Under the pieces are notes generated by a model that did not search any database, was not told the DNA's origin, and saw only the letters and a list, made by a program, of their open reading frames with translations. Positions 21,575 to 45,279 of a stretch of 64,000 nt of DNA are shown piece by piece. The stretch comes from Isurus oxyrinchus. Taxonomy: Eukaryota. How positions within the stretch are numbered: position 1 is the first letter of the stretch; each line of letters begins with the position of its first letter. The position numbers and the translations under genes are program-made. The stretch lies in NCBI GenBank assembly GCA_026770705.1, contig JANJGN010000041.1:2852001-2916000 (forward strand). The letters run 5' to 3'.

Positions 21575-22950
21575 GGTTGGAAAGCTCGCTGGCTGGGGGA
21601 AATGTATTGCCCATCCGAAGTTGCCATTGTGAAGGTGGTGATGAGCTGCCTTTTGAACGGTTGCAGTGTCTGTCGTATACCTACAACAACAGGGCTGTTA
21701 GGAGGTGTTGCGGGGTGGTGTTGGTCGTACCAAAGGATACTGGCCCAGCGACAGTTAAGTAACACTGATGCATTTCCAAAATGGATGGACGTGTCTTGGG
21801 GAGGGGGTTGAAGATTGTTTTGCTGCCATCTATCTCCTTACCTTCTTCAAGGTGCAATTGCCGTAAGCTGGCAGGTGCAGTCGAAGGAGTCGTGTTTTTT
21901 TTCCTTGCAGTGCATTTTATAGACGGTATGCACTGCTGCTTTTGTGCATCGGTGAAGGAGGGAGTGAATGATTGGTTTAGCATCATAATCAAGCGGACGG
22001 CTTTTCCTGGATGGTGACGAAATTCTGTACTGTTTTGGAGCTGTGCTCATCCTTAAAAATGGAGAGTATTCCGTCAAACTTCCGACTTGTGCCTGATAGG
22101 CAGTGGACAGCCTTTGGGGAGTAAGGAAGTGTGTAACTCCTCTGTCAATTCTTGGCAGCTGAACTGCTGTTTTAGCCACGTTACCTAGGTGACTAGTCTA
22201 GATCAGTTTCTGGTAAATGGCGACCTCCTGAAAGTAGATAGTGGGGGGATTCAGTGAGGGGGATGCCATTGATTGCCTAGGGGCAATTGTTAGATTGTCT
22301 CTTGATGGAGATGGTCATTGTCTGGCACTTTTCTGGCTTGATTGTTACTTGCAACTTTTCCGCAACGTGCTGGATATTTTCGAGGGCCTGTATTTCTTTT
22401 TCCTGACACGTTGTTTCTCAGTACAAACCATCCCACCCTCACCCCATGCCCACCACCAGCCTCCTCGGAGGATGAGATGTGCTATGTTATTCACAATCAG
22501 TTCGGCAGGAACTTAATACCCTGCATGGCTGGAGGGGCCACAACATCCTGACCAGGTCATGCTGCATTTGAACCTGGGCTGCTTCATTTTCTGAGGAATC
22601 ACGAATGCTCCTGAACATTGTGCAAACGTCAGTGAACATCCCCACTTCCGACCAGATGATAGATGGACACACATTTATGAAGCAACTGACGCCGTTTGGC
22701 ACTCGGGAATTACCCTGAGGAAATCCGAAAGAGTGTTGTCTTCCTTTGCACCTAGGGCGTGTTACCAAACGTCAACAATTTTATTCCGGCTCATTGAGGC
22801 CACCCACGGTCAAATGCTGCCTTTCTGTCAACGTCTGTCACTCTCCTCTCGCCTCAGGAAATAGAGCTTTTCTCCAGTTTGTATTCATACTTTGTTTTAT
22901 AATGATTAACCAAAACATCTCGAAAGGTTATATTTAATTCAGTATGACTT
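21575..22950 (-). mobile_element. Degraded LINE (CR1/L2-clade shark family), 3' part
   Basis: Minus frames include HFLTPQRLSTAYQAQV and SEVGMFTDVCTMFRSI (RT FADD motif relic). It is the same family as 47800-48720 and 52230-54700 on the + strand. Confidence 0.75.
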
Positions 22951-23279
22951 GTAGCTGTTGTGGAAGTGCACACCAGGCCTGAAGAGATCATGGAGAGATA
23001 AAGAATGTTCTTGGCTCTTACCTTGCGGTGCTGGTAATGGTGAAAAACCCTGAATGTCATCTCTATGGAGCGTGCAATGACACAGATATTCTGTTGAGCT
23101 CACCTAAGGGAAATGGCCAGAAGTTGTAACATGTCCAAGTCAAATCTCCACCGAAACCTTTGGATCAAGATGTATAGCTGACTGCTCAGCACTTATGTAC
23201 AATCATAATTTGTTTTATTGTGGCTGGTTCGTATCATGTTGAGTGGCTGCTCAGTAGAACAGACCTTTAAACGATTACT

Positions 23280-23770
23280 CTGCCAACATCTCTGCTTGTC
23301 GCAAACCCCTTCCATCCTGCACTCAGACAACATTAGCTCTTCTCCCCCATGTCACACCACCTTACCGTCAATCAGTCACCCATTACAACTCGTCACCCAA
23401 ACTCCCACGGCACATTAGCACCTGGTAACACTCCCCTTCAAACCATCAACACTAATTTCCCCATCCCAATGATGCCTCATCGCATGCAATTTTCCTCCAT
23501 CAACCCTGCTACTCTTCTGTCCACACTGCTATTACAAGGCTGCCTGCCATCAGGCCTGGATATCCCTATCAACCCATATCTTCTTCGTTACAAATTTCAC
23601 CTCAATAGCCTCAGCTTCCCCCATCAACATTAGCTCCTCACCTCTAACTTCTCCAACATCCCTGCTTACCCCATAACCTCCGATTTCCACCCTCAAACCG
23701 TCTTTTCTTCTCCAATAACTTCCATTTAATTGTCCTGGCCTTCGAGCATATCAACAACCGTCGGGTCAAT
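23280..23770 (+). mobile_element. C-rich L2-like LINE fragment
   Basis: Strongly C-rich strand typical of decayed L2 endonuclease regions. No clean motif. Confidence 0.35.
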
Positions 23771-25199
23771 AAGGTAGATTCCAAAATGTTCAGTAAGTCC
23801 TTACGCAACTTGTAAGTTTTGTATTGTACATTTCTCTTTCGCTCAGCTAACAAAGTGATGATTGTGTCACTTTTGCAGATAGTGTGGTCTCTCCAAATGT
23901 GACACTCGGCAGATGCTGACTATGGCAGAGCAAAACTGGTTTCCTCAACCTGATATTTCGACTCTTTCTGATAGTTTTAGGAAAAGAGTTTCGTTTCTTC
24001 AACTCCACCCCCGTGCGTAATGCCAACACTATCAGAAACTGACTGTTCTCCCTGGTTCACAGTCACTCACACCATTGAAATCTCTGTAGCCATTTTTTAG
24101 CAAAATCTGAAGAGTAAGTATGGTGTTGGCGGAACAGCGGCTAAGCTTCGGGTAATAGTGACCGTTTTGGTATGTTTAAGGAAAATTTCCCGATATTTTT
24201 TGTAAGCCAATGAGTATTGGCTGACGATAAAAGTCCATTCTGTTATGTGACAATAAATGACCTGCATTCTCAGTTTTGGAGAAAAATCGAATTCCTTGAT
24301 CACATTCTAACGCCGGAGAGGCTATTTGCCCCGCTTCTGCTGTTGAATGGTTTCACTGTCAGGCACAGGTTAATGACCAGCAGAAATTGCAGGACACTCT
24401 GGGTAATCAGAAACATGGAAGATCGAAGGGAACCCAACAATTTGCTTTTGTCCTCTCAACCAATTGCATCAAGTTATGGTCAAAGTTTATGGTTTACTCA
24501 TTGTGGTGGCAGATGTTGGATATGTTGTCCAGTTTGATGCATCCAGAAACCTTGCACAATGGTTTAATTCATTCTGCAGCTCCTGAGTTGATTCACAATC
24601 ATTTGTGTTTGTACTATGACTCAGAATATGTTGCGATTGCATTTGGAGAACGTTCTAGGATATGATTAAAATAACTGAAACACTGTTCGTGTGCAGCATT
24701 GTCCACTGCTCCTTCAGGTTTTCAGCGTCTGGAGGGGCTTGACAGAAAGGCAAATGAAAAATCTTGGGGCTTGTCGCTAATGATAACATTGTCTGTTGAA
24801 CAATTGACTTTTACAACATGAAGTTTCCTCGCTCTGATTAGACATCATAGTACCAAGAATAACAGAACTCACATTGGGCAATCCACTGGTCCACTTTTCT
24901 TCTCCTTCACAACCATCTGCAAGGGCCCCTCCCAGCAGCATCACCCACATAACCCAGCATCCCCACCCACCACCCCTAAACTTCATTTGGCCAGCCCATT
25001 TGTCCATCAGAACGCATTCCACAATTGTCCCTTGCAGATGTTGCACCTATTTTGTGGATTGATGAGGTGAGTTACAAAGTGTTGCCAGACCCCGGCCTGT
25101 TCTTTTTTTGGAAAAATTATTAATCGATTTACTGAAGATCATGAAAAATATGTGTCACAGTGATGTTGCCAAAAGGGACATTGTCTTTGTTAAATAACT

Positions 25200-25860
25200 C
25201 TACGAGCCTCCACGCATCTTGTCTCATCCATGTCCACCATTGTTACCCTCCATGTCACTCTCTCTCAGCTGCTTTCCTGGTTTGGCCTTGAAGAGATTCA
25301 TTATGTTCACCTGAACCATCCCATCTCGTAGCGAGTTCCACATTCTCACAAATCTCTGGACATGAGGTCTCTCCTGAATTCCCGATTGGATAATTTGCTG
25401 ATTGTCATACATTCATGACCATATAGTTGCGTCCCTCCCCATAAGATGAAACATTCTCTCTGTATCCAATCACTCAAAAAGCCTGCTTTTAAACTCCTCT
25501 ATTGTGCCATCCCGGAGACTTGTTTACAATTTTCCAGAGAGAAGAGTCACAGCCTGAAAAGTCCTCCTGATATGTGTACCCGCACATTCCTGCATCATCC
25601 TTATCAGTCCTGTCTGCACTAGTGTCTCTATATGGCTTTATAACCATGCATGTTGACCATGAGTGTAATTGCCTAACTTTGGTCAACCAAAGTTTTAATC
25701 GGGTACAGCATATCCTTCTGACTTTTCAATTCTATCCCCTAAGGCATGAAGCCAAGTGTGTGGTTCGGAATTTTTAACGCCCGGTTAACATATAGGTCTA
25801 CTTTCAATGGTGGAGTTATTTTTACTCACAAATCGCTAAGTACCTCTTCCCCTTCGAGAG
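25200..25860 (-). mobile_element. CR1 LINE 3' fragment
   Basis: The minus ORF contains QRFVRMWNSL..GMVQVNIMNLFKAK, the CR1 ORF2 C-terminus. Confidence 0.75.
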
Positions 25861-27339
25861 GAAAGAGGAAAGAAGAAGAGATTCTTTTTTTAGTGCCAGT
25901 GGGATCAGTTCTGTAAAGCAGGCACATTTCATGCTACATGGTTTGAACTGGGGTCCACTGTCATCTGTCGTGATAGGTGTTTAGGCGGTGACGGTGCGGC
26001 ATGGGAATAGGGACACATGTACAAGCTAATTCGCTTTGCTGTGAGGCGGGCTTCATGACCCTCTGCTGTAGCCGATGTGAAAGCTTGAACTTAAGTGCCA
26101 GCTGAGAACTCATTTAGACTCAAGTTCCATCTTGGTTAAAGGGATTTTTCCATATCCTCAAAATGACATCATCTAAAAATAGCGAGTGTTTGTGCTGCTG
26201 GGCGATATCGGACGCCTTGTAGAATTTTAATAGATGATATTAGTGGAGACTGGGTAAATCCACATTAACTAAAATTCTATTTATTGCTGTTTATTTAAAG
26301 TGCCCTGATCTGAAGTGATGGGTTTGTATTTGGAGATGGTTTTAATGTTTATGGGAGAAAATTAGGGTGATGGTGTTCAGCGTACATCAGATAGCTGTTA
26401 GTTGAATGGATGGAAATGCTCGAAGTGCGAAATAGATACCAAGTGTTCTAAACCATATCGATATAAGGTAGCTCCTGTGAAATATGCTCACCTTCATTAT
26501 GTTCACTTGCAATAAAGACTATCTGTGCTCCAGTTATCTCATGTGTGTCTCTGAGGTGCTCAAGAGAGAATGTGGAAATCTTTGTTCTTGGTACTTGGAT
26601 TTCTGGTGCTCTACCAGCACAGATGCTGTTTATTAGAACTGAGCAGGTATTATGTATTTACTAATAGCATGCACGCAATGAAGATTGTCTCCACTTTGAG
26701 CATGATAAAGACGGAGTCACCTAAGCTAGTTACTTGCTAATCAACAGAGAGACCAATCTGTGTAATGATTGAACAGGTGAAAGTTTAAAATAATTGTTAA
26801 CGACTTATAATTTCAGAGCCAATCTGCAGAGAAGAGGGCCATTTAGCCCATTAAGCACCTCCTGGATCTTTGAAATTGCTGCTCAATTCTCCCCACTCGA
26901 TCTCTCCACTTTCCCCATTGCTCTGCCATTGTTCCTTTTTTAGTTCAATTACCTCCACACCCCTCATTTGTGATTCAACATTGCACCTTCCTCCATTACC
27001 CTTTCAGGAATCCCCTTACATGTCACATGGACAGATTGTGTATAGATAATTTTTCCGCAGCTCCCATCTGGTTATCTGCTTATTACCTTCAATCTGTTTC
27101 ACCCGAGCTTCCAAAATCCCACACTGATTGCCACTATTGAAAGAAATGTGTATTTCTCCCTTGGGGCAGATATCGTTCATTTGACCAGCATCAGCAGAAC
27201 AGATTACCTGATTATTAACTGGCTGATGAATTTTCTTGCTTGAAGGATTAACGACAGCAACTCATTCTATCTTCAGAGCTCAGGGGCAGCCCAAGGACTG
27301 GAATGGTCCACAGGAATTTACCGAGTTCACATGTTCATT

Positions 27340-27660
27340 TTCTGCATTTTGCGTCATCTCTGTCTCTCTTTCTATTTCTCATCTCTTTCTGTCGTTATCC
27401 TTCGTTCTCCGTATGCCCTCTAGCTCAGCCTCTCCTCCTTTCTGCTCCTCTCTCTCTCACATTCTCGCTCTGCATCTTCCTCGCTACGCTCTCTCCCTCT
27501 CTCTTCACTCACTCTCTATTTCTCTTTCATTTGATGATTCTATTTTGCTCTGTCTCGCTCCTTATATGTTCCACCGTGTTTTTTTTTCTTTCTCGTTGCT
27601 CCATCTTATTCTCCAGCTTCCTTTCAAGCTGTATCTCTGTCTCTCTCTGTCCCTATATTA
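27340..27660. repeat. CT-rich low-complexity tract
   Basis: Degenerate (CT)n. It explains the Ser/Leu-rich ORFs at 27236-27691. Confidence 0.8.
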
Positions 27661-27806
27661 TCACCTGGACCGGATAGGTAAATATTTGTAATTTTAACAC
27701 GTTTTCTGTTTGTTAAATATTTGCCTCGAAACGGGACTGAGCTGTCATAAGTCGGTCTCCTCCCTGGCACCGTTCAACAAGGTCCGTGGAATGAGCTGCT
27801 CCTGAA

Positions 27807-27830
27807 TATAAAGCAGCAGCTCACTCACTC
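27807..27830 (+). promoter_or_regulatory. Orphan TATA-box-like element
   Basis: TATAAA at 27807-27812 followed by GCAGCAGCTCACTCACTC. A short ATG frame starts about 50 bp downstream, with a possible AG|GTGAAT donor. Confidence 0.3.
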
Positions 27831-28484
27831 TCTGAGGGGGCAAAGCACAAACTACCAATGCTAACTATCATTTTCAATCATTTTAATTTTTCAATTACAT
27901 ATGGACGTTCTCTGAGCCGAATAAATATAAGCAGGTGAATATACGAACTCAAATATTTGATAATTAGAACGAGGCTATGAACGTTTTGTCATTCAGGGGA
28001 CGTGAGTGTCGCTGCATCTGCCATCAGATTTTATTGTCAAGCACTATATACCATTGAGAGTCTGTTGGTCAGCCTCCTTCCTGACCACTGCAGTCCATAT
28101 TATTTATGTACAACGGACGTGCTGTTCAGGAATGTGTATTCAAGGGCCTGGAAGATGTCCCTGGTGTTCAGCATCAGAAACTGTTTTATTCATCGTGTCC
28201 CATTCTCTGTAGCTAGGCCCAGTGAGTTATTCACAATTTTATGAGTTCACGCAGAGATTCAGCCTCCTCCACCCCTCTAGTCCCTATGTACATTTCCCTC
28301 CACCAGCACACCGTCCTGAAATACCCCAATTTCCTTCCGCACACCGGTGCCTCATGTACTTCCGAAACTGTTCCCCATTTCCTTTCCAACCTGCACCGCT
28401 TTTCATTTCCTCTAACCAGACCCTCGACCGAAATGTTCTCTCACTGCTTCAGGTTAAATGGGCTAGTTGGACCGAATGGCCTGT

Positions 28485-29068
28485 TGTGACGAAATCACTA
28501 CGAATTTCCCTATTACAAAGTACTCCAGTGGTGGGCATTGGCTGGAGACGAAAGTCAACTCATTTTTACAGGAGAGGGTAAAAATGTTGAAGTTGTCCAA
28601 AATGCACTGTGTCTACAATTCTTTGCATGTTGACCAGCTGAGCTTTGGTTACCATGGATATTTGGAGCACTTTGCCAATTTGTTTAATACTTGCTTGTAA
28701 CACGGATCTGACCAGGTTAGGCAGTTGCCATCCTGCCTGCCTGTATTGAACAAGGTGTGACGATCTGGAATTAATGACAAACCCCAGGATGGGATCCAGC
28801 TGCTCACTCCCAGTGTGTGTTGTCAATACACAGACCGCCCACTCTTGAGTCTCCTAATTTTGCTTTTTGCAATCGATACACACGGCGGGCTGGTGCTATG
28901 CTAACTTTGACCAATGGACGACAGGCGGCTCAGGTACCGGTCACGATCATTTATTCCAATAATTGCGAGGACAGAAGCATCTCTAGGCATCATGCACTAA
29001 CATGCAGTCAAACTGCAATCATGCAGCGTATTTTATACATTGCTGATCCCGTACAAGAAGAATATTCA
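28485..29068 (-). mobile_element. Probable 3' LTR of the env-bearing retroelement
   Basis: The minus-strand polypurine tract AAGAAGGGGA (29080-29071) is followed 2 nt later by TG (29068). Candidate ...ACA ends lie at 28696 or 28485; the end point is uncertain. Confidence 0.4.
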
Positions 29069-29597
29069 AATCCCCTTCTTGTCAGAATATATGTTATGTC
29101 ATACATGCTCTTTGACACCGGCAGACAACTCACCCCTATCCTGGCTGGGACCAACTTTAGTTTCCTTTTCGGTTGAAAGGATCACTTCATCTATGTTGTT
29201 GTCAGCCTCTGCCTCCAATCAGGATCCCAAAGCCTTACTGTTTTTTGCAGGCTCTAAGACTTTGCAATATTCATCTGGTAACTTTAACTGTTAATGTGCT
29301 AGATAGCACCGGATGCATGACGTATTCAAATAATCATTCACTTTCAATACATTCTTCCTGCATGACCCCTAAGAATCACCAATACTGGGTCGTTGCCTAG
29401 CCCGGATTCGACAAATACATTTGTACTGTCCGTCCCTTTATGTACCAACACACATTGATACTGGCCACTAATACAGCTTTGCATTAAAAATTTTGATGGT
29501 CAGGTCGGCTGTATCATCTGGTCCTTCACTTGAGGTCTCAGATTTGTTAAACTTCTTCTCCCCCTTTTACATGCCTCCAGCTCCTCTTCTGTGACCC

Positions 29598-30840
29598 TCA
29601 GTCACGATGAATCAGGTAGGTAAAATATATAATAGTTATCAGCTGAATCAGAACCAGTGCATGGGAAATAATCCAAATACACGGGTGCATTTGTACATTG
29701 GAGCCTCAATTCCACCGTTACGGTGAGGAGGAATCTACTTGCTCGATATCCTCTTTTGACACTCTAACCTGTTTACAGTAAGTTCAATACATCTGCAGAG
29801 CTTGTCTCCGAATCGGGGTTAGGTGCTCTGGCAGTTAATATATTATCATATGAGAACTGATTCAAATACCGTACCGGGTTATCGTTATGGCTTTCCATGA
29901 CCTGGGTATTAGTCCATCCTCTCTTGTATATTTAGAGCAGTTGTACATTTCCCAGGCTTGCCGGCACCTGCGGGTGTAGGGACAACAATTGATTATGGAT
30001 GGATCACATCAAGTTACCCCAATACTGGATCATTTGCTGCCACGCAGTGATACAATAACTCCTATTCCCCATGTATGCAACATGGGTCGGTTTTTTTGCA
30101 GCCCATGCAGTTTCCATTATACAATTTGCTGCTGCTTTGAATTCACACTTTGTTTCTTCCATCTCATATATTGCATGAGTACATACAAATGCTGTGCTCT
30201 CGAAACCGCGCCCTTCTAATATTGTGCTAACTATATTCCCTTGTATGTCAACTGCTTATGGCAGAATGTCATGTTGCCTAACATAATAGTTTTCCCACAT
30301 CACCCCAACATGTTCGGCTCAATACAATGTTCTGCTGGGTGTTGACGTAGGTATAACAGGTATCACTAAGTCAATGCCAATTAGCATGTTACAATTCACA
30401 ATGCATTCAACATTCTTTCTACATACACGTGTTAAACCTCTGAGCTGGCACGCAGCCAAGTCATGATTTCTATGTCGTGGATGGTTAAATAAAAGTTCAT
30501 TGGTTGCCCATGAAGCAACTCCATCTTCATTAATCTCTTAAATTCAGTCGGGCTTGTTCCAGTGTACAGGGTCCATTGGTCCTGCAGACATAACTACTGT
30601 TTGCTTAACCTGAAATATGTTTTCCTTTACTGTTAAATTTATTGATAGACCACGCATGACCTTCGAGCAAGTTAGCCATGTTATGAATTAACTGTTTCAT
30701 GTCATGGCCTGTATTAAATTGGATGTCGTGAAATCCATGTCCCCGCTTAAAATTTCCTTTAGCTGGGAGATCAAGGATTGGACAATTTTGTCAACAGTTT
30801 ACAGGTCAGTGGACTTAACACAGAAGCTTCCCCACTGAAG
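29598..30840 (-). pseudogene. env: Decayed retroviral envelope gene, paramyxovirus-F-like (lokiretrovirus-type) fusion glycoprotein
   Basis: The minus strand gives a fusion-peptide end and heptad region (V(K)STDL*TVDKIVQSLISQLKEIL...LLEGHAWSINK...C...TLEQARLNL). A 255-codon frame (30537-29773, 4 internal stops) follows: EINEDGVASWATNELL...CQLRGL..VC...C...LIGIDLVIPVI...LY*AEHVGV...P*AVDIQGNIVSTILEG.GFESTAFVCTHAIYEMEETKCEF..ANCIME...VAYMGNRSYCIT. A C-terminal TM segment RWN*GSNVQMHPCIWIISHALVLIQLITIIYFTYLIHRD* ends at 29598. Confidence 0.75.
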
Positions 30841-30844
30841 CATT

Positions 30845-32150
30845 CTGAAGTTTCTATCCATTTGAGTAATAAGGCGGTATTATTCTTCCAACCAAAATGC
30901 ATAAACTCACTATTCTCCATATTAAACAACATCTAGCAAATGTTGTCCCATTCACCTTACTTGTCCATATCCATTTGTAAATATCTTATATCTTCATTAC
31001 AACTTATTCCCCACCTATTTTGGAATTATCTGTAATTTTAGCTATTGTACATTCTATCCCTCAACCAAAGTCATTCATAACGATTATGAATAGTGGGGCC
31101 CTAGGACCGAACCCATTGGAAACCCAATAATTACAGCTGGTGTTCGGGAAAAAAAGAACCATTTACCCAAACTCCTTTCTTTCTGTTGTTTAGCCAATCC
31201 TCTCTCCAAGCTAATATAATACCCATGACTCCATGTGATGTACCTTGTGAATTAATCTTTTGTGCAGCTTCTTTTCAAAGGCCTTCTGCAGTGCAGAAAT
31301 ACAACATCCACAGTATCTCCATTATCCACTTTGTTTGTCACATGTTCCAAAAACTGTAGCAAATTACCCAAACACGAGTTAATTTCATAAAAAAATGCTG
31401 ACTCTGTTGGACTTTATTTCGACGTTCCAAATGCCCCGTTAGTAATTCCTTAATAACTGTTTCCAACAATTTCTAAACGATAGATATTAAACTGGTTTAG
31501 AGTTTCCTAATTTCTGCCTCCCCCAATCCTTCTGAATAAGGTCATTATATTAATATTGTTCCAATCCAGGGAATTTTGGAACGTAATTACCAATGCATTC
31601 ACTATTTCTGCTGCCACATCCTTTACGACCATTGGATTTAGGTCAACAGGTCCTGGGGACTTGTCACCCTTTAATCCAAAATGTTTGCTCAGTACGTTTT
31701 CTCTAGTTATGGTCATTCTTCTAGGTTCCTCCATCTCTATACTCTCTGCTCTGCCTGTTACGATTGGTGTGGCAGTAGTTTCCTCCGCCGTGAAAATTGA
31801 GGCAATATATTGAGACTAAACATATAGTGCCTTTTCTATGTTCCCCACTGTTAACTCTCCAGTCCTACCATCCAACTGACCAACATTCGCGTTTGCTACA
31901 CTATTTATTTTTATATACTTTTGGAAGAATTTGATATCACTTTTTTTTATTTTGCGCTAGTTTACTTTCATAATTTTCCTTTGTTATTTTTATTAACTCT
32001 TTGTTCGTCTTTATAATGTTCCAAATCTTCCTGCTTGTCACTGACCTTTTCCACTTGGGATGTCTTAATTTTGGATTTTGTGTTGCCTTTAACTTCCTTG
32101 CTTAGCCCTGAAAGATTTTTTTCCCACTCTTACCATCATTCTTCCTCATT
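30845..32150 (-). mobile_element. Degraded CR1 LINE (RT region) abutting the env 5' end
   Basis: Minus ORF 31507-31734 reads ITRENVLSKHFGLKGDKSPGPVDLNPMVVKDVAAEIVNALVITFQNSLD. Confidence 0.85.
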
Positions 32151-32659
32151 GGAACGATTGTTCTCTTTATTTTTGCGATTTGGCCAAGGCATTTTTGATA
32201 ATGGTATTTGCACACATTTTTGTGACTGAATGTGCTGTACAGGTTGGTTATTGTTTTACATAATTAGTCTGATCGTTTTAAACCGAGTAGGGATGAAATG
32301 TACCCTTGGCTCCTGCTATGCTGAATCAGTTTTGATTTGTTTTCCCCAATGTTTTTCTCTTCCCGGTAAATTAGTGATGCTTTTGTTCCTGACACGAAGA
32401 AATTGTTATCCCTCAAATTGTATTATTTGCTACCAGAATTGAATGGCAGATACCGAATTCCTGGACGTCATATATGTTCCGAAATTAAGGGGAATTTGTC
32501 AGGCGAAATTCCCAGATTTATTTGTGTGCAATATTGGCATTCATTGTGTTTCTCTCTTTCTGTTTAAATAACAATCACATTTTTTTGCATCACGGTCGCA
32601 TTTATCAATGATCCGTCAGCGGATATTTATTGCAAGAAGCATTTCTACCCTTCATGATC

Positions 32660-32950
32660 TTATCTTTCTATCCATCTATCCATCCACTCATCTATCTATC
32701 TATCCATTTATCTATCTATCTATGTATTTATCTATCTATCTATCTTCTCCATATCTATCAACCTATCAATACATTTCACTCTCATACTCTCTTGCTCTTT
32801 CATTCACACGCTCCATTTCCTGCTCGTTCTGTCTCGCTCTCTCTCTCTCTCCCGCGTACAACTCTCTTTTCTAATCAGTGTATCCAGTTGGATATCTGTC
32901 TATCTGTGCATCTATATGTCTGCCTATCTGTCTGTCGGTCTGCCTGTCTA
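32660..32950. repeat. Compound microsatellite (TATC)n/(CT)n/(TGTC)n
   Basis: Directly visible tetranucleotide and dinucleotide runs. Confidence 0.85.
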
Positions 32951-33399
32951 ACTATCATGATGATTGATTCTCCCGGCACTTCACCATGTGAGTACGTGGC
33001 AAAAAAAAAGTGGCAGTCTATTATCACTTGTGACATTAGATCAAGTCTATATTTGCACAATCGATTGCCAAATGCTGCATACAATGCCCGTTCAGGTGGA
33101 ATTAATTAACTTTGCCCTCTCTTCCTTGTCTTTAGGTCGCTTGACTCAGTTCTCCACAAATGCCTAAATCATTGGATGATTCCTCTATTTGGTTGTGCCA
33201 AAGGTTTTCTTATTTCGTTCAGAATCATGTTTTCAAATATATCCTTTCCTGTGGCGGGGATGTTGTTAGATGGACCACAAGTTATTGCCAGATCCAAATT
33301 GCCCTTGAAAAGGCGGAGGTGCCCTACATTCCAGAAATTGTATATTTCATCTGATTGACGTCAGTGGCATTCCCTCAGTACCTAGAAAAAAGTTCGTCA

Positions 33400-34990
33400 G
33401 GCTCAGTGTGAATTCAGATGACTGAGGAGTCCCATTCTGGAGCTACATGTTCTTGATAAAGACGGGCACGTTTTTTTATGCTGAAGAGTTGAAATCAAAG
33501 GCCAAGGTTGGTTCACTTCTCCATGCTGTGCCTTGGCCGTTCCACCACTCTTGAGCCGCTGAGACTCGAAGCGGTTTTCGATTTGATGCACTGGATGATT
33601 CAGGCCGAGTGATCAGCAGCATTCTCCTCCCGCCCCCTGGTTTTAAGACATCCGTGCATTAGGAAAAAACTGGAGATTATACAAACAACGTTCTCTTTGA
33701 CCGCCCTTTGGACAAGGACTGCTAAGTGGTAGATGCAAGTATGGAAACACAACCCTTTCCTGAAACATGTGCCCTACAACCGCCAGATGTCTGCTGCATT
33801 TGTACAGGATTTTGGCTGGGTGCCTATAGGCATCAGAGCCTTGCCAAGTCACCAATCCTCCATGCCTACAGGGCTTTTCACCTGAAGCATGGTTGTAAAC
33901 CCATATGTTAGTACCAGGATTCCGGTGTGCCGTGTCTATGCTTCAAACGATGCAGGCACACCGGGATGCTTTTAGCAATGTAGTGTCAGGGTCCCATGTA
34001 CTGGGATCCAACTTGCAATCTCTGAGCTTAGTTTTCAGATTTCAGACATCCTCTAGTGGAGCTTCCTGTGCTCACCGAGTGTGGCGTGTTTCTACGTACG
34101 CATTTTCCAGATGAACAGCATGACCTAGCCAGGGAACCGGGGCTCTAACGAACATACTTTTGATATCATGCTTGCTGCACTTTGCAAGTTCATTGGTTTT
34201 GCGGATTTTCTCCTGCCAGGAACCGTTGGAAATTCTTCACAGACAGTGATGTTTGAAAGTTTTCATTAGCTTTCTATGTGGCCGAAAGGTTATGCAAGTC
34301 TCGCAATAATATAGAAGTGATATAATAAAAACTGCCTGGAAGGGCTTGATCTTCCATCTGAGGGAAGATTCCATGTTCTCTTTGCCGAAGTCAGTGAGTG
34401 AATGCTGTCAAGTGCCGAGCTTGTTTTTGTCAGTTGGTGTGTAATTTGCCCATCCAGTTAGTGGCCTTGGAGTCCATGTGGCCAAGTGAGAAAAACGTGC
34501 TTAATGAACAAAGTGGTGCATTGCTCAAAGCGGCTGTGGTATCTTGGAGCACGTGACCAGCAACGGTTTAATGCAGCATCTCTATCCTTAGTTATATTGT
34601 CAAACGAAAACATTCTGTGTTTCCCGCAACGCCCTGAGCACACAGCTGAATGTCTCTGGATACTGACGTATGAGAGCGCATTTTTCCACGAATACGACTT
34701 CCCTCTGTAGCTGCCCAGCAGCCTCTGTGCAAGGTTTTATTCTTGGCTCATTCAAAAGGCTGCCGGTGGTCCTGAAATGAATCGATGATACTTTGTCAAG
34801 TTGTTTGAGTCCATGCTTGGACAAAGACCTACAAATATATGACAAACAGAGCTGGTGATATTAAACAGCATTATTTGGCACTGCAAGTGATATGCAAAGG
34901 GTTCACACAGACCAAACAGTTTGTATCCCTCTGATCATGACGCCTTCATCATAGAGCGAATGACACTGACCATCTGTTCAGTGCTGTCGC
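33400..34990 (-). mobile_element. Degraded RTE-clade LINE, RT and C-terminal region
   Basis: Minus frames read SIHFRTTGSLLNEPRIK...EVVFVEKCAL (RTE YRTDG.LFN...ELL.ADDCAL), then FQAVLLYHFY..CET...FKHHCL..I...WQ...WLGHAV, and C-terminal CPSLSRTCSSRMGLLSHLNSH. Confidence 0.8.
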
Positions 34991-36168
34991 ATATTCCTGG
35001 CTGTATTGGATAGTTTATTGAACAAGAAGGGAGTCTAGGTTGTGTTTTGTGAGGGAGTTGGACGAGGGGGCGGATATACGGCGCTGGTTGGGGAAGAACA
35101 GGCAGGAGAGCGGGTCTGAGGACACAATCAGAAAAAACATAATCTTTCCGAATTACTGGACAGGCTCAAGGGGCTAAATGACCTACTGAACTTTACTATT
35201 CTGTTTTTGGTGTTTGGTTGAAATGCAGCCCACACCAAAGGTGGAGGAGCCATCGATTTTGGTTCATTGTAATCAGTGTATCTATCTTCTAATGATTGTC
35301 TTCAGACTAGATTTGAGGGCCAAGACTAAAATGTTCAGCGCGGAATGCCGTCCCAGCGATGCACTCTACATATCCGATTGTTTTATTCAAGTAATTGTTT
35401 TTCATTCAGTTGAATCATCACTCTGGTTGGACTATGTGAGTGGGTGAGCAGGAGGATTGGATGACTCGGTGAATTGTTACTGGGGCTGTATAGGGTCGGA
35501 ATGCCTTGAAAGCATTATGTTGAAATATTTTGTTTGAGAAAACAAAGGCCTTCTTCATACAGTATTTATTGAACATCAAGTCACCACCAACACCAACCTT
35601 CCAGGTTGAACGTTTGCGGTTATAATTTCCAGGCAGAATGGTGCAAAGTTATGTGCAATGGAAAAGAATTTCGGTCAAGTCACTGACGGAAGTGTCAGTG
35701 CTAGAGGAATCCATGGAAAGATCTGGGAAGCGTATGAGTTCCCTCTGGAAGTTTAAATGTCACAGACAAACATCACACATGTGCCCTGCTGGAAGATAAA
35801 ATTTGTCCCGAAAAACATGACAGTGGTGAACATTTGAAATTTCCCACACTACCTCTCCTGACAGTTGAGGCCGATTGAGTTTCCTCGAATCATTTTGAGC
35901 TACATTAGTAAAGATTAGATTTCCAATATCCCTCCGTGGGTCAAGCATTTCCCACCGTGATTATCCACTATGGGATCTACCAGCTGCTCGTTAAAATATA
36001 GCCCCTTCAATTGTATTGACCACAAACATCATTCGAATGTTCGATGTTTCATTTCGAAACGGTTCCTTTTTGAAACAGAGCGACTGACGTAACCTGTTTG
36101 TTCAGTGACTAAAACTAATTGATTTCTTTAGGGGACATGAATGCTCTAATGGGGATTGATCTGCTGCT

Positions 36169-36234
36169 TATATAACAGTTTCGCTGAATGTCAAGTTTCA
36201 TGTTTTGCAACAGGCTCGGTGTATCGGTTTCAAC
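36169..36234 (+). promoter_or_regulatory. Candidate TATA box and short non-coding first exon of the second GPCR gene
   Basis: TATATAA at 36169-36175, a CA about 30 nt downstream (36199-36200), and a strong donor AAC|GTGAGT at 36235. A matching acceptor (polypyrimidine...CTGTAG|) lies at 36899, just before the ATG exon. TGACGTAA (CRE-like) is near 36085. Confidence 0.45.
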
Positions 36235-36379
36235 GTGAGTTAGCTCCTCTTACAGTGAATATAATTTGTTGTAGTTCATAAGATACGATCCATTTTCAAA
36301 CCCATACTCGAAGCTGTCATTTTCCGATGTACGTTTATGAACATTCTCTCGGATTAACAATATCAATTTCTGTCCTTCT

Positions 36380-36680
36380 TTCGATTCATAGATGAGGGAA
36401 ATGCAGGCATGGCGAGCATTTATTGCCCATCTTTAATTCAACTTGTGAAGTGGGTGGTGAGCTGCTGCAATCTTTGTGGTGTAGTTACATCCACAGTATT
36501 ATTAGGGGGGAATCCATTAATTTGACAAAGAGACAATGAAGGAACGGCGATATTTTCCCGAATCAGGATGATGAGTGGCTTGGAGAGGAACATTCAGCGA
36601 CAGGCGTCCGCATGACCATGCTGACTTTGACTTTCTAAATGGTAGCGGCCATGGGTTTGATTAGTTAACTAAAGGGGTTC
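36380..36680 (-). mobile_element. LINE 3' fragment (same family as 21575-22950)
   Basis: GCATTTATTGCCCATC...GGTGGTGAGCTGC...ATGAAGGAACGGCGATAT is shared with the 21.6 kb copy. Confidence 0.7.
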
Positions 36681-36920
36681 ATATTGAGTAAAGGTAACAG
36701 CTGTTCTCTGTCCCCTGCCAGGAATGATGTCATTCTAGTTTTTCCCTGATGCTCTAGAATAATTAATGTGACATCTCCTTCCGAAGCTCCTAGTTTTTAA
36801 AGTGTTTCTCCTGTTTTCCTGAGATAAAACTTAAAGAAGAAGAGGATTTTTACGTTTCAGCTCACACGTTTATTTCTTCTTGTGCACCCATCTCTGTAGG
36901 AAAGACATCTCCTTAAAAAG

Positions 36921-36990
36921 ATGGGTGAACTGATACTTCACCAGCTAGAAGCCATTTATTATCCTGTTCTCGCGGCTATTGGGGTTCCTG
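36921..36990 (+). CDS. GPR139/142-like GPCR gene 2, first coding exon
   Basis: ATG at 36921 (AAGATGG, good Kozak context) encodes MGELILHQLEAIYYPVLAAIGVP plus one G, followed by donor GTAAGA at 36991. The phase-1 join to 45280 gives GVP-V-NLVAIVIL and restores the TM1 GxPxN motif. Confidence 0.9.
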
Positions 36991-38289
36991 GTAAGAGCTT
37001 TAATGCAATCATTACCCGTATAAATGCATGTTGACGTTCTTCTCAAGTGCTGTTTCTGATAACATGGAATCGTTTCTTTACAGTTGGGGACACATGAATG
37101 CAGGGATGTAAGTTTAAACATAACTTTAAAAGATTTCTTACTGTTGCTGTATCTTTCACTCAGGCGTCTCCACTGCCAACACCTTATTCATGGAATGTCT
37201 TGTAACAGAGTGGGCTCTGCAATAGATATCATAATCAAGTGCAAACCGAGTTTGAACTAGTAGAAAACCCAATCTGTGAAAATCTGTGCAGAGGCAATTT
37301 ATCATTCTGTAAGTTCCTGCTGGAAATACTTGAATGCTTTGCTAATGCTATTCATCCATTTCCCAATAGTTAAAGGAACAGGAACACTGTCAACTCGCAT
37401 ACTTACTGCCACAGCGATACGTTTACGAATCTGGATGCAGAGAGGATATCTGGAAGTCTGGGTGAAACAGATTCCGTTTGTGCAGAAGACATTTGAATGT
37501 TTTAGTAACCTGTCTATTGAAATGCATGTATTTCTAGAACCTCCTTTATCGAACTTAATGAATGTATATGAAGTGCAGTCAACGAAGTGATGCAAAAGGT
37601 GACAGGCAATTTCTGGTGGAGAGGCTTCTACAGGCAGCAAGTTTACAATGAGCTGATTATCCGTTTTGTGGGCTTTGGCCGAGGTTCAAATAGTGCTCAG
37701 GACACAAGGGGCTACGACAATGTTGTTCTTCGAAATAGGGGCATGGAAACTTTGAAAATAACTGCGAATCGATTAGTCATGTGTTACGAAAGTTATTATA
37801 ACCCATAGTGCAGAACTACTTCACTACAGCAATGGAGCATTAGCAGGGAATTTTCAGTGAGGGTGCTAACTGAGATATTCGTAGTCAGATTTTGGAAACC
37901 CTATGCACCCTGAGTAGTAATCTGGTTATCATTAATATGCTCATTTCAATTTCTAGCCCTCCACTTCCTGTTGTTGAAAACCCTGCTTCCAAATCTAACT
38001 GATTTACATTGAGGATAAGTGTAAATTGATATTAAGCATTGCCGGAATCCCCTGTGGCTTTGGCAAACGCACATTGCCATGTTACATGGTGTCGCTGACA
38101 GAGGGACATTGCAGCATAGGAAATACGAGTAAGAGTTGACCATTTGGCCGCACGACGGTGCTCCACTACTCAATTATATCATCGCTTAAATTATGCCTCC
38201 ACGACATTCCTCGCACTATCTCATATCTTTGGACGCATTTACTAATGCGAAATCAGTTCATTGACACATTCAACATACTCAATGACTGC

Positions 38290-41200
38290 CAATCCACGGA
38301 GGTTGCAGTACATAATTTCGAAAATTTACCCCTCCCTGAGTGATGAATTCTTCCTAAGACCAGTTCTAAATGCAGACCTCTTATTCTGATATTGCTTTTC
38401 AGGGTTTTAGGCACCCCCAACAGGGGAACAATCCAGGCAAATCTACACCAACGAAATTTATAAGAACGATGGATGCTTCAGTGAGATCAATTTTCATGTG
38501 CCAATGCTCCAGAAAGCAGAAGATGAGTCTCGTCAATGTCTCCACATAGGACAATCCCAGCGACCTTAATGTAATCCAAGAGGTAATGTGTTGAACATTC
38601 CTTGTCGCAGAGCTACAACAGCACCTAATGAAATCCACACAAAAGGGGCAAAGTAGATGGTTTACTGGAAGCACGAACATCACCATAAACATTCCACATG
38701 AATATTGCAGATTTGGGTAATCGCTGGCTTGGGGTTACAAATTATTCTTGTGCACAAATCAGCTAACGCTGATGGTCCACAGTGCCTCGTGAATGCCCTG
38801 TTTTGATCGGTTTATCAAGGTGAATTGTACGCCATTTAGCACAATGATTGTCTCACAAAATACAATCGAGAGAAGCCCTGATGTGAAGGCGGAATTTGTC
38901 TGAACAAGTACCGTGCGGCAGTTATTCCTATTAATCCTTTAATGAACAGATGCACCTGTGGTGGGTAGGTTGGTGGACCGGATTTACATAGAGTTTTGCA
39001 CCTGCGTTGTTCCCTGATCACCTGCCAAAGACCCAGTCTAGCAGTTACATTTATGGACTGGCCAGCTCGAAAATTAATGGCTCAACCGATCCTCTCTTGT
39101 TCACAGACATCGCGGTCCGCATTGTGAAGCATTTTTCTTTCCCTGTCATTCCCCAAAAGATCATCGATCCATCCACTGAGGGGAAAGGGAGGTGGTCAGC
39201 AGGAGGGGATATTCTTTGCCCATGTGTTTCATGATGTCATGAGATTTCATTTAAATACCACGTGCTCTCAAGGATATGAAAAGTGATGCACACTGAAAGT
39301 GTTGCAAAATGGTATTTAGGAATCAGTAATACAATTGTGCAATAACGAGAAATTCAAATGATATTTCACCATTTAGATCAGACAATTTCACTCAGATGTT
39401 TGCTGATGATTCATATGAACTTTAAAAGCTTTAAGAGGAATTACTCAGATAAGGATAAACATCTTGAATCATTCAATCTACGGAATGATTGCAAATCAAA
39501 CTGTCTGCTTTGTCTTGGAATAAGTCAATATTGTTGAATTATATTAGAGCGTAAATCATCCAGACAGGTGTAGCATATCCCATCATACTCCTGATTTGAC
39601 TATTTAAATGGAGGAAAGGTTTTGGAGAGTCAGGGGGTGCGTTGCTCACAACAGCATTCTCAGATTCTGACCTGCCCTTCTAGTCACAGTTTCTTGTCAA
39701 TGGTTTGTCCAATGATGGTGAAATTGGATTCTTAAGCGATGGTGATGTCATTAAAACTCATGGACATTTTGATGGATACTCCTTCGGTTCAGTTGGTCAT
39801 TGCATTTCAATTTTGTGGGATGCAAATTACCTGTCGAATTTCAGCATAAGTATGGCTATTGCCCAGGTATGGATGGACATGGGCATGGATGTTATTAGCA
39901 TAGGTTGTGTCGCGAATGGTGCTGAACTTTGAACAATTGTCAGCGGACACAACCTTCTCCCAGTAGCCCACACCCTACCCACCACACCAAACCTCTTTCT
40001 GTGTTTTAAATGGAATGTATTTCATTGATGCAGCAGCTTAAGATGGCTGTGCTCAGGGCACTGCCCTCAGGCTCTCGTCAAGTTATGTCATGGGAAACAA
40101 AGAATAAAGAAAAATATCCTTTTCACTTGATATGACTTCAAGCACTGGGGACTTTGCTCCTTTTTCTTATTGACTAAAATTCTGATAGCCCTCCTTGACA
40201 CCATAGTGTGATAGCTGTTGTCTTGATATAAAACACTGCTCCTCTCTCCTTACCTTATGAGTACAGCACTTTTGAAAATGTTTCAACCAAGGTTGAACCG
40301 AGAGTTGGAGTTCACACGAAGCAAGAAGTGAGCGTCAGTGAGCAGTTTACTGTGAGTACCTGGCGATTGAAAGCATTGTCCATGATACTTTTCATCACTT
40401 TGATCATGATGAAGTGTAGGCAGACGGTGCTGTAATTAGATTGCTTGGATTTGGCGTGTGTTTTTGTGGATAGGCATGTGAAAATGCTGACATTTTTGCA
40501 TCGATACCAGTATTTTAGATGCACCATACGAGCTTCGATAAAGTAGTCTTATTCAGGAGCACTGATCTCCCATACTATTGGCATTGTCTAAAATTACCCT
40601 TAGCCTCTGCATCATCCAGATTCTTCTGTCATTCCTTAAATTCGAGTGCTGAGAATCACATTGTATTACGCCTGGCATCTGTATTGCTTTTTATCCAATG
40701 GAGGAGGCTGGGATGGTTCATCCACCCGTCACTTCAGGGTGAATGTGGCTGCAAATTCTTCAGCCATGTATATGCACTGGTGCACAGTGCTACACAGTCA
40801 TTTCCGATGGGGATATTGGTGGTGATCCGTCCACCAGTGAGTTGCAGAATTTTCCACCGCCATTCAAGGCGACTGTGACTTCACTTCAGAGCTGAGCTAT
40901 CGTTACTTGGTAGGGCGATCAATGAGCCCTGCTTTTCTGATGCTGAATACGCTGTTTTGCCTGCAAGTAGCCTTGTCTTACAATTCAACAGGTGAAGCCT
41001 TGTTGTTAGGAATGGTCACTGTTGCTGTGGACATATGACAGATGTCGGCAAAGTTCCTTCATTTGTGCACTTGACCTCGAAAGCATGGAAGGACAACAGC
41101 AGAAGAGGCATGGGAACACTTTTAATTACAAAGTCCTTTCCAAGTCTCGCACCAAGTGGACTTGGAGATGTATCACCATTCCTTGACTGTCACTGGATCA

Positions 41201-41330
41201 AAAACCTAGAAATCCATCACTCGTAGCATTTTGTCTGCACCCGCTTCATATGGACTCCAAAGCTAGAAACATCTTATTTTCAAGAAGAATAATTGAAAAC
41301 AGAAATAAAATTACTAATCTTGTCAATATA
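38290..41330. mobile_element. Cluster of decayed LINE fragments inside the GPCR intron
   Basis: A CR1 3' end (minus, about 38290-38620) and several pieces of the CR1/L2-clade family (minus about 39560-41030, plus 3' end about 41040-41330) recognised by similarity to other copies in the window. Confidence 0.55.
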
Positions 41331-44300
41331 TCCAAAGAAAAAAAAAATCCATGATGAACGAGTTATGAAGAGTGACATTCTTTTTGTATTGAAATGACGG
41401 CCCTGGCTTTTGCTTTTTTTCGAGCTCAACAAACAATAACTACAATATCCATGTTTAAATGTAAATTATTTCGGACAATACTGGTCCCAAACTGAGAATG
41501 TATATTTTGAATTCACTCCTGAATATCCAAATCTTTAACCAAAAAAATTGGCTGAAATTTTCGTCCACATTTCATACCTCTCCCCCACCCTCTAAAGGCC
41601 CCACTCCCCATCACCCACCCACCTCAAAAATGCCGAATCTGCACGCAGGTCAATGACATGCATCGGGTATAATGTTGTCAGTTACATGAACCTCCCCGGT
41701 TTCAGATGGAGAACAGTTACAAGTTACTAATTAGCCACTTATTGAGTTTCTGAACGACACAACCGAATGTTTTCTTGATTCGTGCCTTGCATTTGCCGTG
41801 GCCCAGACGAGAGAGAAAACATATTTCTGTGCAGCTACCATCAGACCAGAATCGCGTGGAAGAGAGGTTCTGCGTCCGGGTCCATGATTAAATGCAGCAA
41901 CAGATGGTGCTGGGGAAGGTGGCAGCGGTTTCAGGATTACTTTTCACTTTTCTTGTTTCTTGCCTGAGCTTTCAACAAAAAATATTTTTGGCAAAACCGT
42001 TTCTGAGATCAAGTGGTCTTGAGCTTGCAGCCATACCGACTTCCTGTTCAAAGCATTACACTCTGTCGCAGGATGTTCAGGCTTTCACTGCCGATTGGAC
42101 GCATACCCTATTGTGCATCACTCATTGCCTCTTCACAGTGGCAATTTAATTAATTGTGGAGCTGGAGATGGTCTATGGGAGAGTGTGGAGGGAAAGGGCT
42201 AATTTTACATTTCTCCAATCTCACCTGCCTAAAAACGTAAAATCCATGCCACTGTCTACTTATTATAATGATTCTGCATGATTTTAAATCACGATTACGT
42301 TTTGCACATGCACCGGAGGATCTGTGTCACTTCTCTAGTGTAACTGCTGCTGACTGTATACTTAATTTGCTAGCTAAATAGTGGATAATCGTTTGGATAG
42401 GTCACTATTTAATTAGGTAGATAATTGGTTGCTTCATTCCTGCTCAACTTCAATGTTTAATTCGGAAAGAAATCTGGAAATATATTGATAATTTATTGGA
42501 TAACAGTTTTGATAATGAATTTGTTCAAACATTGGCTGCTTCATTGTATAATTTTTTTCAATTACTCTATATTTGAACCTGTTTCCTTATTTAGAGTGTG
42601 GCCAGTACAGTTTAAAGTGATGATAATTTGGCGAACAATCTTTGTATATTTCACAATAGCGCACAGATAATTATGCCTCTCAGTTTAAATGCATGTCATT
42701 GTCGGAATATAAATATTCGGTTTGCTCAAATAATAATAGGTATTGGGTAAATGAAGGTAAATTTTCATTTTTGACATTTATTTCAGCTGCAGCTGTGTCA
42801 AAATAGCTTTGATTAATAATGCTTCCACCTTTTCCAGTTCAACCTACATTCCGAACAGAAACCCAAAATTTAATTTTGATCTATTGCCTAGCGTTTTCAA
42901 GGCTGTTTGTGATTACCTTTGACAGCTCCATTAAGTCCATCAATATTTGATGCTTGCATTCGAGTTAGAGAATTGTGAATTGGGGGCTGCCAACTGGGCT
43001 GTGTATGTAATGCAAATAGATACTTGCTTTTTTTTATGTGTGGTCAAACATTGCCAATTTGCAATCTGATCCAAAAATGTAAAAAAAACTATTTATCTTT
43101 ATCCGACTATTTTGCATTACTTCATTCAAAGTTCATCTGAATCATTAACCAACAACATATTGAAATAACATGATCCAATATGTTAATTAACCACCCGTTT
43201 ATAGACCATCAATGCATTGTTATTTCCCTACATTCAAGTTTGCGAAAAATCTACGCTCAGTCTGCACCATGTTGCATAGCCTGGAAAACAGTTGATAATT
43301 GAAATAACTCTCGATCTACTCATCCCATTGTTTTGCGCATGTGCATTATCCATTCATTAATCTGTGCCTTCCAAATCTGACCGCGGATTTCGGTCGGAAA
43401 GCTATTCAGCACCCTTGAAGGAGCCATGACATCCTCTCCTATAACAGCGCCAGCAGAACTAAAAACAAAATTTCGGCAGCGAGCCGATTACCCACTTTCG
43501 ATAATAATTCAAGCTAGAGTTATTTAATTTGATTTTAAATGCCGAAAATAATCTAGCAAACGTGTGCATCAAGTTATTACATATCTAGCAGCTACAAATT
43601 AGTTCAGAAATATTCACTTAGAAAATATAATCTTCAAAATTCAAATGGACATTCACTATCTAAAGAACAGAAAGCATAATGCAACCGTGATTATCTGAGG
43701 CTCACATCAATTTCGCTTAACTTACATAGATGATTGGGTTTCATCAGTAATCAGTATAAATGTCTGAAGTTAATCTTGTGGAAAATAATGCAGCATTGAA
43801 TAACGGCGTTAATTCTCGAAAAATGTTCCTGCATTTTGAAAAAAAATATGCATTTTAACAAATAATGCTAAGATTCATGTGTTTTATGAACCTGGCCAAT
43901 CTGAAATGAAATAAGCTGTAGAGGATGTTAATTTAAACATGGGCGTGATAGGTGTAATGTCTCTTTCGTCAGTTTATCGACAATTCGTAATTTCACTTTT
44001 CTGAACATATATTAGTTTAAAGATTCAAATTGATGTCCCCATCACCTTCAATCTTTATCAAGATCTTTCGCACTTGATGCCCAGCAGAAATCAATTTTCA
44101 GCTTCATATTTAAAATCACTTCACACGGATGCTGCACTTGAGATGCCCTTTCTGCCCTTTCGGCAATAAAGTGAATGGTTTTGCAGCCGATCAATTAATG
44201 GGAACTCTGTCCTGTCTACTAGGAAGTAAAACGCTAGTTATGACCTCAGTACAATCACATCATCGAATTGGTCATTAACTTTGCTTTGCAAGAAATGTGC

Positions 44301-45279
44301 CCCTATGGCCAATAAACATTGCCCACTCAATCTGATAGCAATGTCACCGTTCCCAGTCCGCCATTAAATTGCCCTATTGATCAGGACTGACTCCACCCAT
44401 TCTGCATAGCAATGTTGCTTCACACCTTCTGCATTGAATTAGCGATGCATTCACCTGAAATAATGCTGCACAATGCCCAGCCAGCATATCAATCTTACAT
44501 TACTCATTCTGACTTAAAACACATGACTGATCAGCTCTCATTCATGAATAAAACTTCTCGCTGTGAACCTGCATAGGAATGTCACTTTGTACTGATTGTC
44601 ATTGTACCGCCACCGTGATAACTGCAGTGTAAACTTGCATTCAGCCTTGTCTATGCTGTCTTTTATGTAGCTCAGTGACCATTTTCTGGTCGTATGTTTT
44701 TGCCATTCCATCTTTCATCCTCTCAAGCATTCAGAGTATGTTCGTGCCCCTGGACAATATTTTACCTTCAAGCTGGATGTCCTGTAGCACAGTAATGCTT
44801 CCCAGTATTTATCACATCTGTAGACCACCCATATGCATTGCAGCAATACCTCTTCCAGAGTATAAGTCAACTTGGCACAGATACTATTTTGCGCATTAAT
44901 TTCCCATTTCACATTGTACCAACACACATGAATTGCCACTTTACACCTCCCATTTACCTTTTATTATTCACGATGCCCAGCCATTTGTTTGCTTTCAAAT
45001 TTTCCAGGTCACATTCGCCCTCAGTAATCTCAATCATTACTAAACAATAGTCGCCTAGTTTACGTTGAATATGGTCATTTCAAATTACGAATTATCAACT
45101 GAGGTTTTCCTTCCCTATCCACTTTGATTCGGTCCAGTTTAAATTTAGAACATGCTCGCCTCGGAATGCAGACTGTGCATATTTGGGTTGAAAGCACAAT
45201 CCTTTGCTGCAACAGGAACAAAATTAGTAATGTTCATTTGTGTCGTCTATCTCTTGCTCTCTTTATCCCTCTCTTACAG

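Follow-up and report, generated by a model that had tools for sequence, protein, structure and literature searches.

An old shark retrovirus family with a likely F-type envelope: a dead env fragment in Isurus oxyrinchus and an intact env as a candidate for host co-option

The locus studied here raises the question of what kind of virus left an envelope gene in this shark genome and whether any copy of that gene has been kept. The window (the whole 64,000-nucleotide stretch of Isurus oxyrinchus DNA that was analysed) had been predicted, from its letters alone, to hold a fossil F-like env of lokiretrovirus type on the minus strand at 29598-30840. Our overall reading, to which we assign a probability of about 0.75, is that the window carries a dead, 5'-truncated env with its 3' LTR from an old, multicopy shark endogenous retrovirus (ERV); that the reverse transcriptase (RT) of this family is non-foamy, lies near that of snakehead retrovirus (SnRV) and is not lokiretroviral; that its Env is likely F-type; and that an intact env on another contig, C40, is likely kept by the host.

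The minus-strand frame behind the original prediction is real. It spans 254 codons from a stop at 30540 to another at 29775, with internal stops at 30321, 30258, 30006 and 29934, and the Cys-core motif quoted from it is present. The stop count alone is unremarkable, given that 1.1% of 255-codon windows across the six frames of the window, in 36 separate stretches, have four stops or fewer; over the full 29598-30840 the frame holds 12 stops in 414 codons. What marks an env in the window is homology to P0002, the 724-residue product of the intact C40 env, rather than a low stop count. By tblastn, a broken 3' part of env occupies 29574..30831 on the minus strand and corresponds to P0002 residues 297-720 at 50-62% identity (E 2e-104), with the homology spread across three frames; relative to the intact P0002 frame it has acquired 9 stops and 3 indels that shift the frame. 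The fragment, all of it on the minus strand, comprises the end of a fusion-peptide-like segment and the start of HR1 at 30748..30831 (P0002 297-324), a heptad or helical region at 30536..30745 (P0002 326-395), a Cys-rich core at 29845..30549 (P0002 392-626, 63% identity) and, at 29583..29834 (P0002 630-718), HR2, a decayed Trp-rich membrane-proximal segment interrupted by stops, and a transmembrane segment (TM) placed by the hydropathy of P0002 685-714. This anatomy had been described in a single frame; the Cys core does lie in that frame, whereas most of the heptad region (30745-30536) lies in another and the Trp-rich segment and TM (29714-29583) lie in a third. The gamma-type CX6CC motif is absent from the env reading, as had been noted, and the two CX6CC strings in the window, one in an out-of-register minus-strand frame and one on the plus strand, both fall outside it. 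Read with X at its stops, the window env had no Pfam match and no PDB sequence match. The window copy is a dead, inert fragment.

The original coordinates captured the env and stopped short of the full feature, which runs on to the end of the 3' LTR at 28899. Alignment to other copies by blastn delimits a 3' untranslated stretch at 29373..29573 (minus strand), whose LTR-side end is a putative decayed purine-rich tract, and next to it a 3' LTR at 28899..29372 (minus strand) that starts near TG, ends in CA and is 78.6% identical over 471 nt to the 5' LTR of a full-length copy. At its other end, the truncated env abuts a decayed LINE RT fragment recognized from its translations (30843..32300, minus strand, outer end approximate), which we take to be CR1-like from its motifs and which had no Pfam match. 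The rest of the window yielded no 5' provirus part, gag or pol. A segmental duplication (22043..42027, plus strand) encloses the env fragment and matches C41:5440001-5460000 at 98.4% identity for 20 kb or more, and older duplicates at 78% share both junctions. Seven other copies on C41 are 97-99% identical and lie within segmental duplications of at least 20 kb; the remaining copies are dispersed at 71-79%. Truncation and decay of the window copy were followed by its passive multiplication through segmental duplication. The duplication-rich contig C41 also carries, at 45231-46136 of the window (plus strand), an intronless rhodopsin-family GPCR ORF (7tm_1, E 1.7e-19).

Fuller copies with gag and pol had been expected elsewhere in the genome, and LTR-gag-pol-env-LTR proviruses were found. 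A search of the 4.98-Gb assembly with 29000-30860 gave 42 matches from the 40 scored of 1313 candidates, and the proviruses contain RVT_1, Integrase_H2C2 and a weak zf-CCHC match. The gag-pro junction is a stop codon that is otherwise read in frame, which suggests readthrough. Six of the ten mapped loci (L034, L038, L042, L044, L046 and L050) lack most of gag-pol and retain LTRs and env, and first-look DNA candidates numbered 1313 for the env/LTR query versus 148 for the pol query. The usual ERV pattern is loss of env, and env-keeping, gag-pol-deleted copies are the reverse of it; many copies may have spread in this deleted form as helper-dependent elements. A tRNA-Ser 3'-end pattern occurs at 223 places in the genome, several of which adjoin copies of the family, and all three tested cluster matches were tRNA-Ser genes. 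Given these exact matches beside other copies and the tRNA-Ser genes among the clusters, replication was probably primed by tRNA-Ser; at the decayed C40 site, which carries an indel, the exact pattern had no match within 3 mismatches.

The intact copy that had been anticipated is the C40 env, an uninterrupted 724-codon ORF on the minus strand at L032:2251-4422 (G000:C40:8928251-8930422) in an LTR-gag-pol-env-LTR provirus (L032:1634-9344) that adjoins a histone gene cluster (H1, H2B and H3 in L031). It is the only full-length stop-free copy among the 62 scored of 6366 first-look candidates, so other intact copies may remain among the unscored. P0002 has a hydrophobic N-terminus (signal peptide), RDKR at 281-284, a small-residue fusion-peptide segment followed by long predicted helices, a Trp-rich segment, a TM at about 685-714 and 18 Cys in total. 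It contains no CX6CC, CC or CXXC and has no Pfam match to gamma-type Env or an immunosuppressive domain (ISD). A possible Ig-like N-terminal module at residues about 48-116 had no Pfam match; the motif pattern of SnRV Env (L111:6206-6421) is similar to the P0002 N-terminus, with a weak V-set match (E 0.16). A further env, at L133:5335-7383 (G000:C21), is almost complete, with two frame switches and one stop.

The call of an F-type env held in that the fossil is a retroviral env without gamma motifs; the shark Env is likely kin to the F-type (paramyxo/foamy-like) class I fusion proteins, on sequence tests that are weak. In the ESM Atlas, the top rows for P0002 were Fusion_gly/Baculo_F clusters (0.93, 211 features), at a low recognition of 1468 versus the 2300 reached by most known families and with PF00523 on 21% of the members of the top cluster; SnRV Env was placed on that same cluster. 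A profile built from shark env only put one foamy Env at the top of 274 viral ORFs, at 8.9 bits versus a maximum of 5.5 in 1600 shuffles; this was the one scoring sequence of eight foamy and SnRV Envs, with SnRV Env and six of the seven foamy Envs receiving no score. One family member matched Baculo_F at E 0.0011. By eye, the motifs of P0002 track the lokiretrovirus Env printed in the supplement of PMC7947760: a GP..G.V start, RxKR, G.VP after HR1, N.G..RG and the spacing of the Cys core. Pfam Fusion_gly and PDB fusion proteins gave no match for the window copy, P0002 or profiles A1 and A4. The check by structure rested on two low-confidence AlphaFold models (pLDDT 34 and 37.5); Foldseek on BFVD with a low-confidence model returned nothing at E<=0.001, its paramyxovirus F0 match at rank 9 (E 0.076) is not counted as evidence, and VIA-align of these models found generic helices. 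PF00523 searched against the shark's own genome gave 9 weak matches, and all four that were inspected were tandem-repeat frames. Long 21-nt tandem repeats at L148-L155 (G000:C2643, C6 and C2914) carry multi-hundred-codon open frames on both strands (e.g., ELRLAVS heptads).

Cryo-EM structures show the F core in foamy virus Env as well (PMC11468914; PMC12583693), which Fernandez et al. 2024 (PMC11468914) place with paramyxo-, pneumo- and coronavirus proteins in subclass Ib of class I fusogens. HHalign aligned 191 collinear columns of shark and foamy Env, covering the C-terminal Cys core plus HR2 and matching five Cys, at an E of 0.16 that is not significant. The two differ in that the shark Env begins with an N-terminal signal peptide, whereas foamy Env has a long leader and an internal receptor-binding domain (PMC11468914), and the shark RT falls outside the foamy clade. 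The shark family has its best RT score, among the named viruses compared, with SnRV, and the two have in common 47% identity over 32 aa at the zinc-knuckle end of Gag, an in-frame stop codon between gag and pro, and the Atlas cluster of Env. It differs in Env length (1134 aa in SnRV versus 724) and in an aligned Env identity of about 22%, with neither HHalign (E 0.089) nor BLASTP significant between the two Envs, as well as in the lack of a supported RT clade, an IN nearer to epsilon-like viruses, a tRNA-Ser-type primer site and no accessory ORFs seen. SnRV-like ERVs are described in elephant shark as CmiERV lineage I (Han 2015, PMC4422223).

The lokiretrovirus label did not survive placement of the linked RT, which nests inside the retrovirus clade and apart from the Loki-motif RT. 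The shark RT sits inside retroviruses with support of 100/98; with foamy viruses added, the retroviruses had support of 95/90 and their non-foamy side had 92/91. A forced clade of the shark RT with the Loki-motif sequence P0027 was rejected (p-AU 0.001, with this single motif-labelled proxy), and P0027 itself was sister to all retroviruses including foamy. The trees recover the published order of Gypsy, Loki, foamy and others, with the shark RT among the others, outside the foamy, gamma/epsilon and ERV-L/S-like clades and in an open polytomy with SnRV that forms no supported clade. They were built without alpha, beta, delta and lenti viruses; short RT hits, P0037 and L081/L125 were left out, as were P0034, P0035 and other redundant or long rows from the AU-test and foamy-added trees. 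We take L141-L147 to be foamy viruses by motif, size and layout. Lokiretroviruses are represented by P0027 only, labelled by motifs common to the Loki-Pma and Loki-Aro rows, and L111 is identified as SnRV from the agreement between its RT and the row given for SnRV in the supplement of the lokiretrovirus paper. In that supplement (PMC7947760), the Loki rows carry PFGY where the shark RT has LPQ(G/D/S)F, and the shark RT contains neither PFGY nor their SRWPM motif. The natural 243-codon RT of the linked provirus L085 scored 137 bits to foamy and 115 to MLV in PDB, followed by HIV-2 and Ty3 (76 bits). Among six named viral genomes the best RT score was to SnRV (183 bits, 39%, versus at most 139 for the rest); the shark IN scored 143 bits to epsilon-like viruses versus 91 to SnRV. 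A second, distinct family of SnRV-like ERV RTs is present in the same genome at L156 and L159-L161.

It is accordingly very improbable that a genuine lokiretrovirus, which would be the first from a cartilaginous fish, left this element, and that reading is largely refuted. Signal peptide, RxKR, fusion peptide, coiled coil and TM are common to the shark and lokiretrovirus elements, as are the LTR-gag-pol-env layout and a tether plus RNase H (available parts of PMC7947760), and the by-eye motif likeness of P0002 to the printed Loki Env and the dual RNase H of P0014, the closest intact pol relative, speak for it. A tether and RNase H are common to all retroviruses, however, and occur in both P0014 and the shark copy, and an F-type Env is not diagnostic of lokiretroviruses, given that cryo-EM shows the Env of foamy viruses to be F-like (PMC11468914). 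Against a lokiretrovirus stand the RT placement inside retroviruses rather than as their sister, the AU test and the missing PFGY and SRWPM motifs. The shark Env gave no PF00523 match, with that family on 21% of the members of its top Atlas cluster, and no smc gene like that of lokiretroviruses (PMC7947760) was seen. Furthermore, the best genome matches to a Loki-motif RT query were only 37-39% identical and, in the four of the top eight loci that were printed, of LPQG/LPHG type. The accompanying remark that cartilaginous fishes were not among the first listed hosts proved correct, with none of 6 chondrichthyan genomes positive (PMC7947760). Still more remote is an endogenized paramyxovirus or pneumovirus F gene, or a Gypsy/errantivirus env. 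The Atlas clusters do take in Mononegavirales F and Baculo_F/Gypsy, and paramyxovirus-like EVEs are reported in sharks in the available text of 10.1101/2023.10.17.562709, but linkage refutes such an origin: env sits between pol and the 3' LTR in the proviruses, and the linked RT is retroviral and far from Gypsy by the PDB scores above.

For the intact C40 env, the comparisons lean modestly toward co-option by the host, for which it is a candidate. The LTR pair has a K2P distance of 0.158 over 417 sites, or about 0.079 per lineage, which by loose arithmetic would correspond to 36 or 359 million years at the published mammalian or tenfold slower rates. Measured against the L085 frames, 1687 nt of C40 pol hold 23 lesions, 6 of them stops and 17 frameshifts (a few of these belong to L085), and give a dN of 0.099 and a dN/dS of 0.76. 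The env has no lesions versus 13.7 expected from the mean of 6.3 per kb in 30 other copies, a set made up of the window copy and the 29 with the best scores, and 0 of 1500 neutral simulations of it stayed open. The C40 env lineage has a dN of 0.033 (95% 0.025-0.043) and a dS of 0.20, giving a dN/dS of 0.16 (0.11-0.23); the 29 broken env copies have values of 0.27-0.82, with one outlier set aside (L063, dS 1.4, excluded from the bootstrap). The same C40 insertion with both flanks is present in run X7 at about 3% flank difference, in which the state of env is unreadable. Runs with the same insertion at this flank difference share 0.36-0.38 of env words, approximately what neutral divergence of 3% would give, and repeat collapse in contigs could lower this share. 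Contigs guessed to be RNA consisted largely of paralogous pieces, matching env and the LTRs at about 90% identity, and thus are uninformative on C40 expression.

An appreciably less probable, though substantial, alternative is that the virus is the same and the C40 env was not co-opted, its open frame being due to a helper-dependent late insertion with recombinant LTRs, to gene conversion or to selection that has lapsed. The abundance of env-keeping, pol-deleted copies fits this alternative, as does the dN/dS of the broken copies, which indicates that env was under selection during amplification, and as does the env word share of 0.38. Moreover, the target-site duplication is not checkable because the 3' LTR is cut short, and the mutual best match of the C40 LTRs is marginal, with the 5' LTR scoring 428 bits to its own partner versus 422 to the LTR of another copy. 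Nevertheless, the two LTRs are still mutual best among the fetched loci, there is no near-identical sister env (the closest other copies reach 77-83% protein identity), a run about 3% divergent holds the insertion along with both flanks, and the env dN of 0.033 is less than the per-lineage LTR distance of 0.079. Host retention of the C40 env is, on balance, the reading we prefer.

While the virus was active, its Env would have come from a spliced RNA, an acceptor-like TTCACAG lying just before the ATG, and would have entered the secretory path, where a furin-like protease would cleave it at RDKR; its anatomy suggests membrane fusion by the fusion peptide and two heptad regions. The C40 Env would most likely act at the cell surface, through receptor block against related viruses or through cell fusion, which are known roles of other ERV Envs in the available text of PMC8922424. 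Syncytins, percomORF and chondrichthyan syncytin-like Env are likewise intact env genes in proviruses with decayed gag-pol (available text of 10.64898/2026.05.06.723177). Those Envs differ in being gamma-type with an ISD and CX6-7C(C), neither of which is present in the C40 env. The 36-species chondrichthyan survey required an ISD and CX6-7C, and its main text holds no mention of paramyxo, foamy, Loki or SnRV; it therefore could not retain an env of the C40 type. A C40 env under host selection would thus be a captured envelope of a type excluded by design from the chondrichthyan survey, and a domesticated F-type Env, if true, would represent a class of captured fusogens invisible to syncytin-style screens.

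Three elements of this picture were already known separately: the F-like Env of lokiretroviruses and foamy viruses, the presence of SnRV-like ERVs in chondrichthyan genomes, and the co-option of env genes. Our literature search, to which subscription papers were mostly closed, found no F-type Env on an SnRV-grade RT or in shark ERVs and no co-opted F-type env in sharks; a Wang & Han survey of 177 co-option events, covered through a review, could list C40. An anamniote Env survey deals with gamma- and beta-type Env (10.1101/2021.11.23.469661), and an errantivirus preprint deferred vertebrate elements, each in its available text. Wang & Han left open, among four scenarios in the available parts of PMC7947760, whether an F-like Env is ancestral to retroviruses or was acquired by lokiretroviruses alone. 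The pairing of an F-type Env with an RT that is neither foamy nor Loki, together with the Atlas signal of SnRV Env, favours the ancestral scenarios. We tentatively propose, at somewhat less than even odds, that the shark domesticated an F-type Env from a basal non-foamy retrovirus lineage and that the F type would therefore be ancestral to lokiretroviruses, foamy viruses and SnRV-grade retroviruses, to be replaced later by gamma and beta types. P0002, unbroken as it stands in the genome, offers a natural target for structure determination.

The named relatives of this env at the protein level are all from sharks (Heterodontus, Heptranchias, Chiloscyllium, Pristiophorus and Mustelus). A word-indexed homologue search with P0002 returned 0 of 6066 candidates and no full-length homologue, and profile A3 returned 3 of 7885 candidates, all from sharks. 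Two Heterodontus francisci fbxo15 isoforms, X2 and X3 (P0046 and P0047), end in a related env C-terminus including the TM, 49% identical to P0002, which may be either exonization or an annotation artefact.
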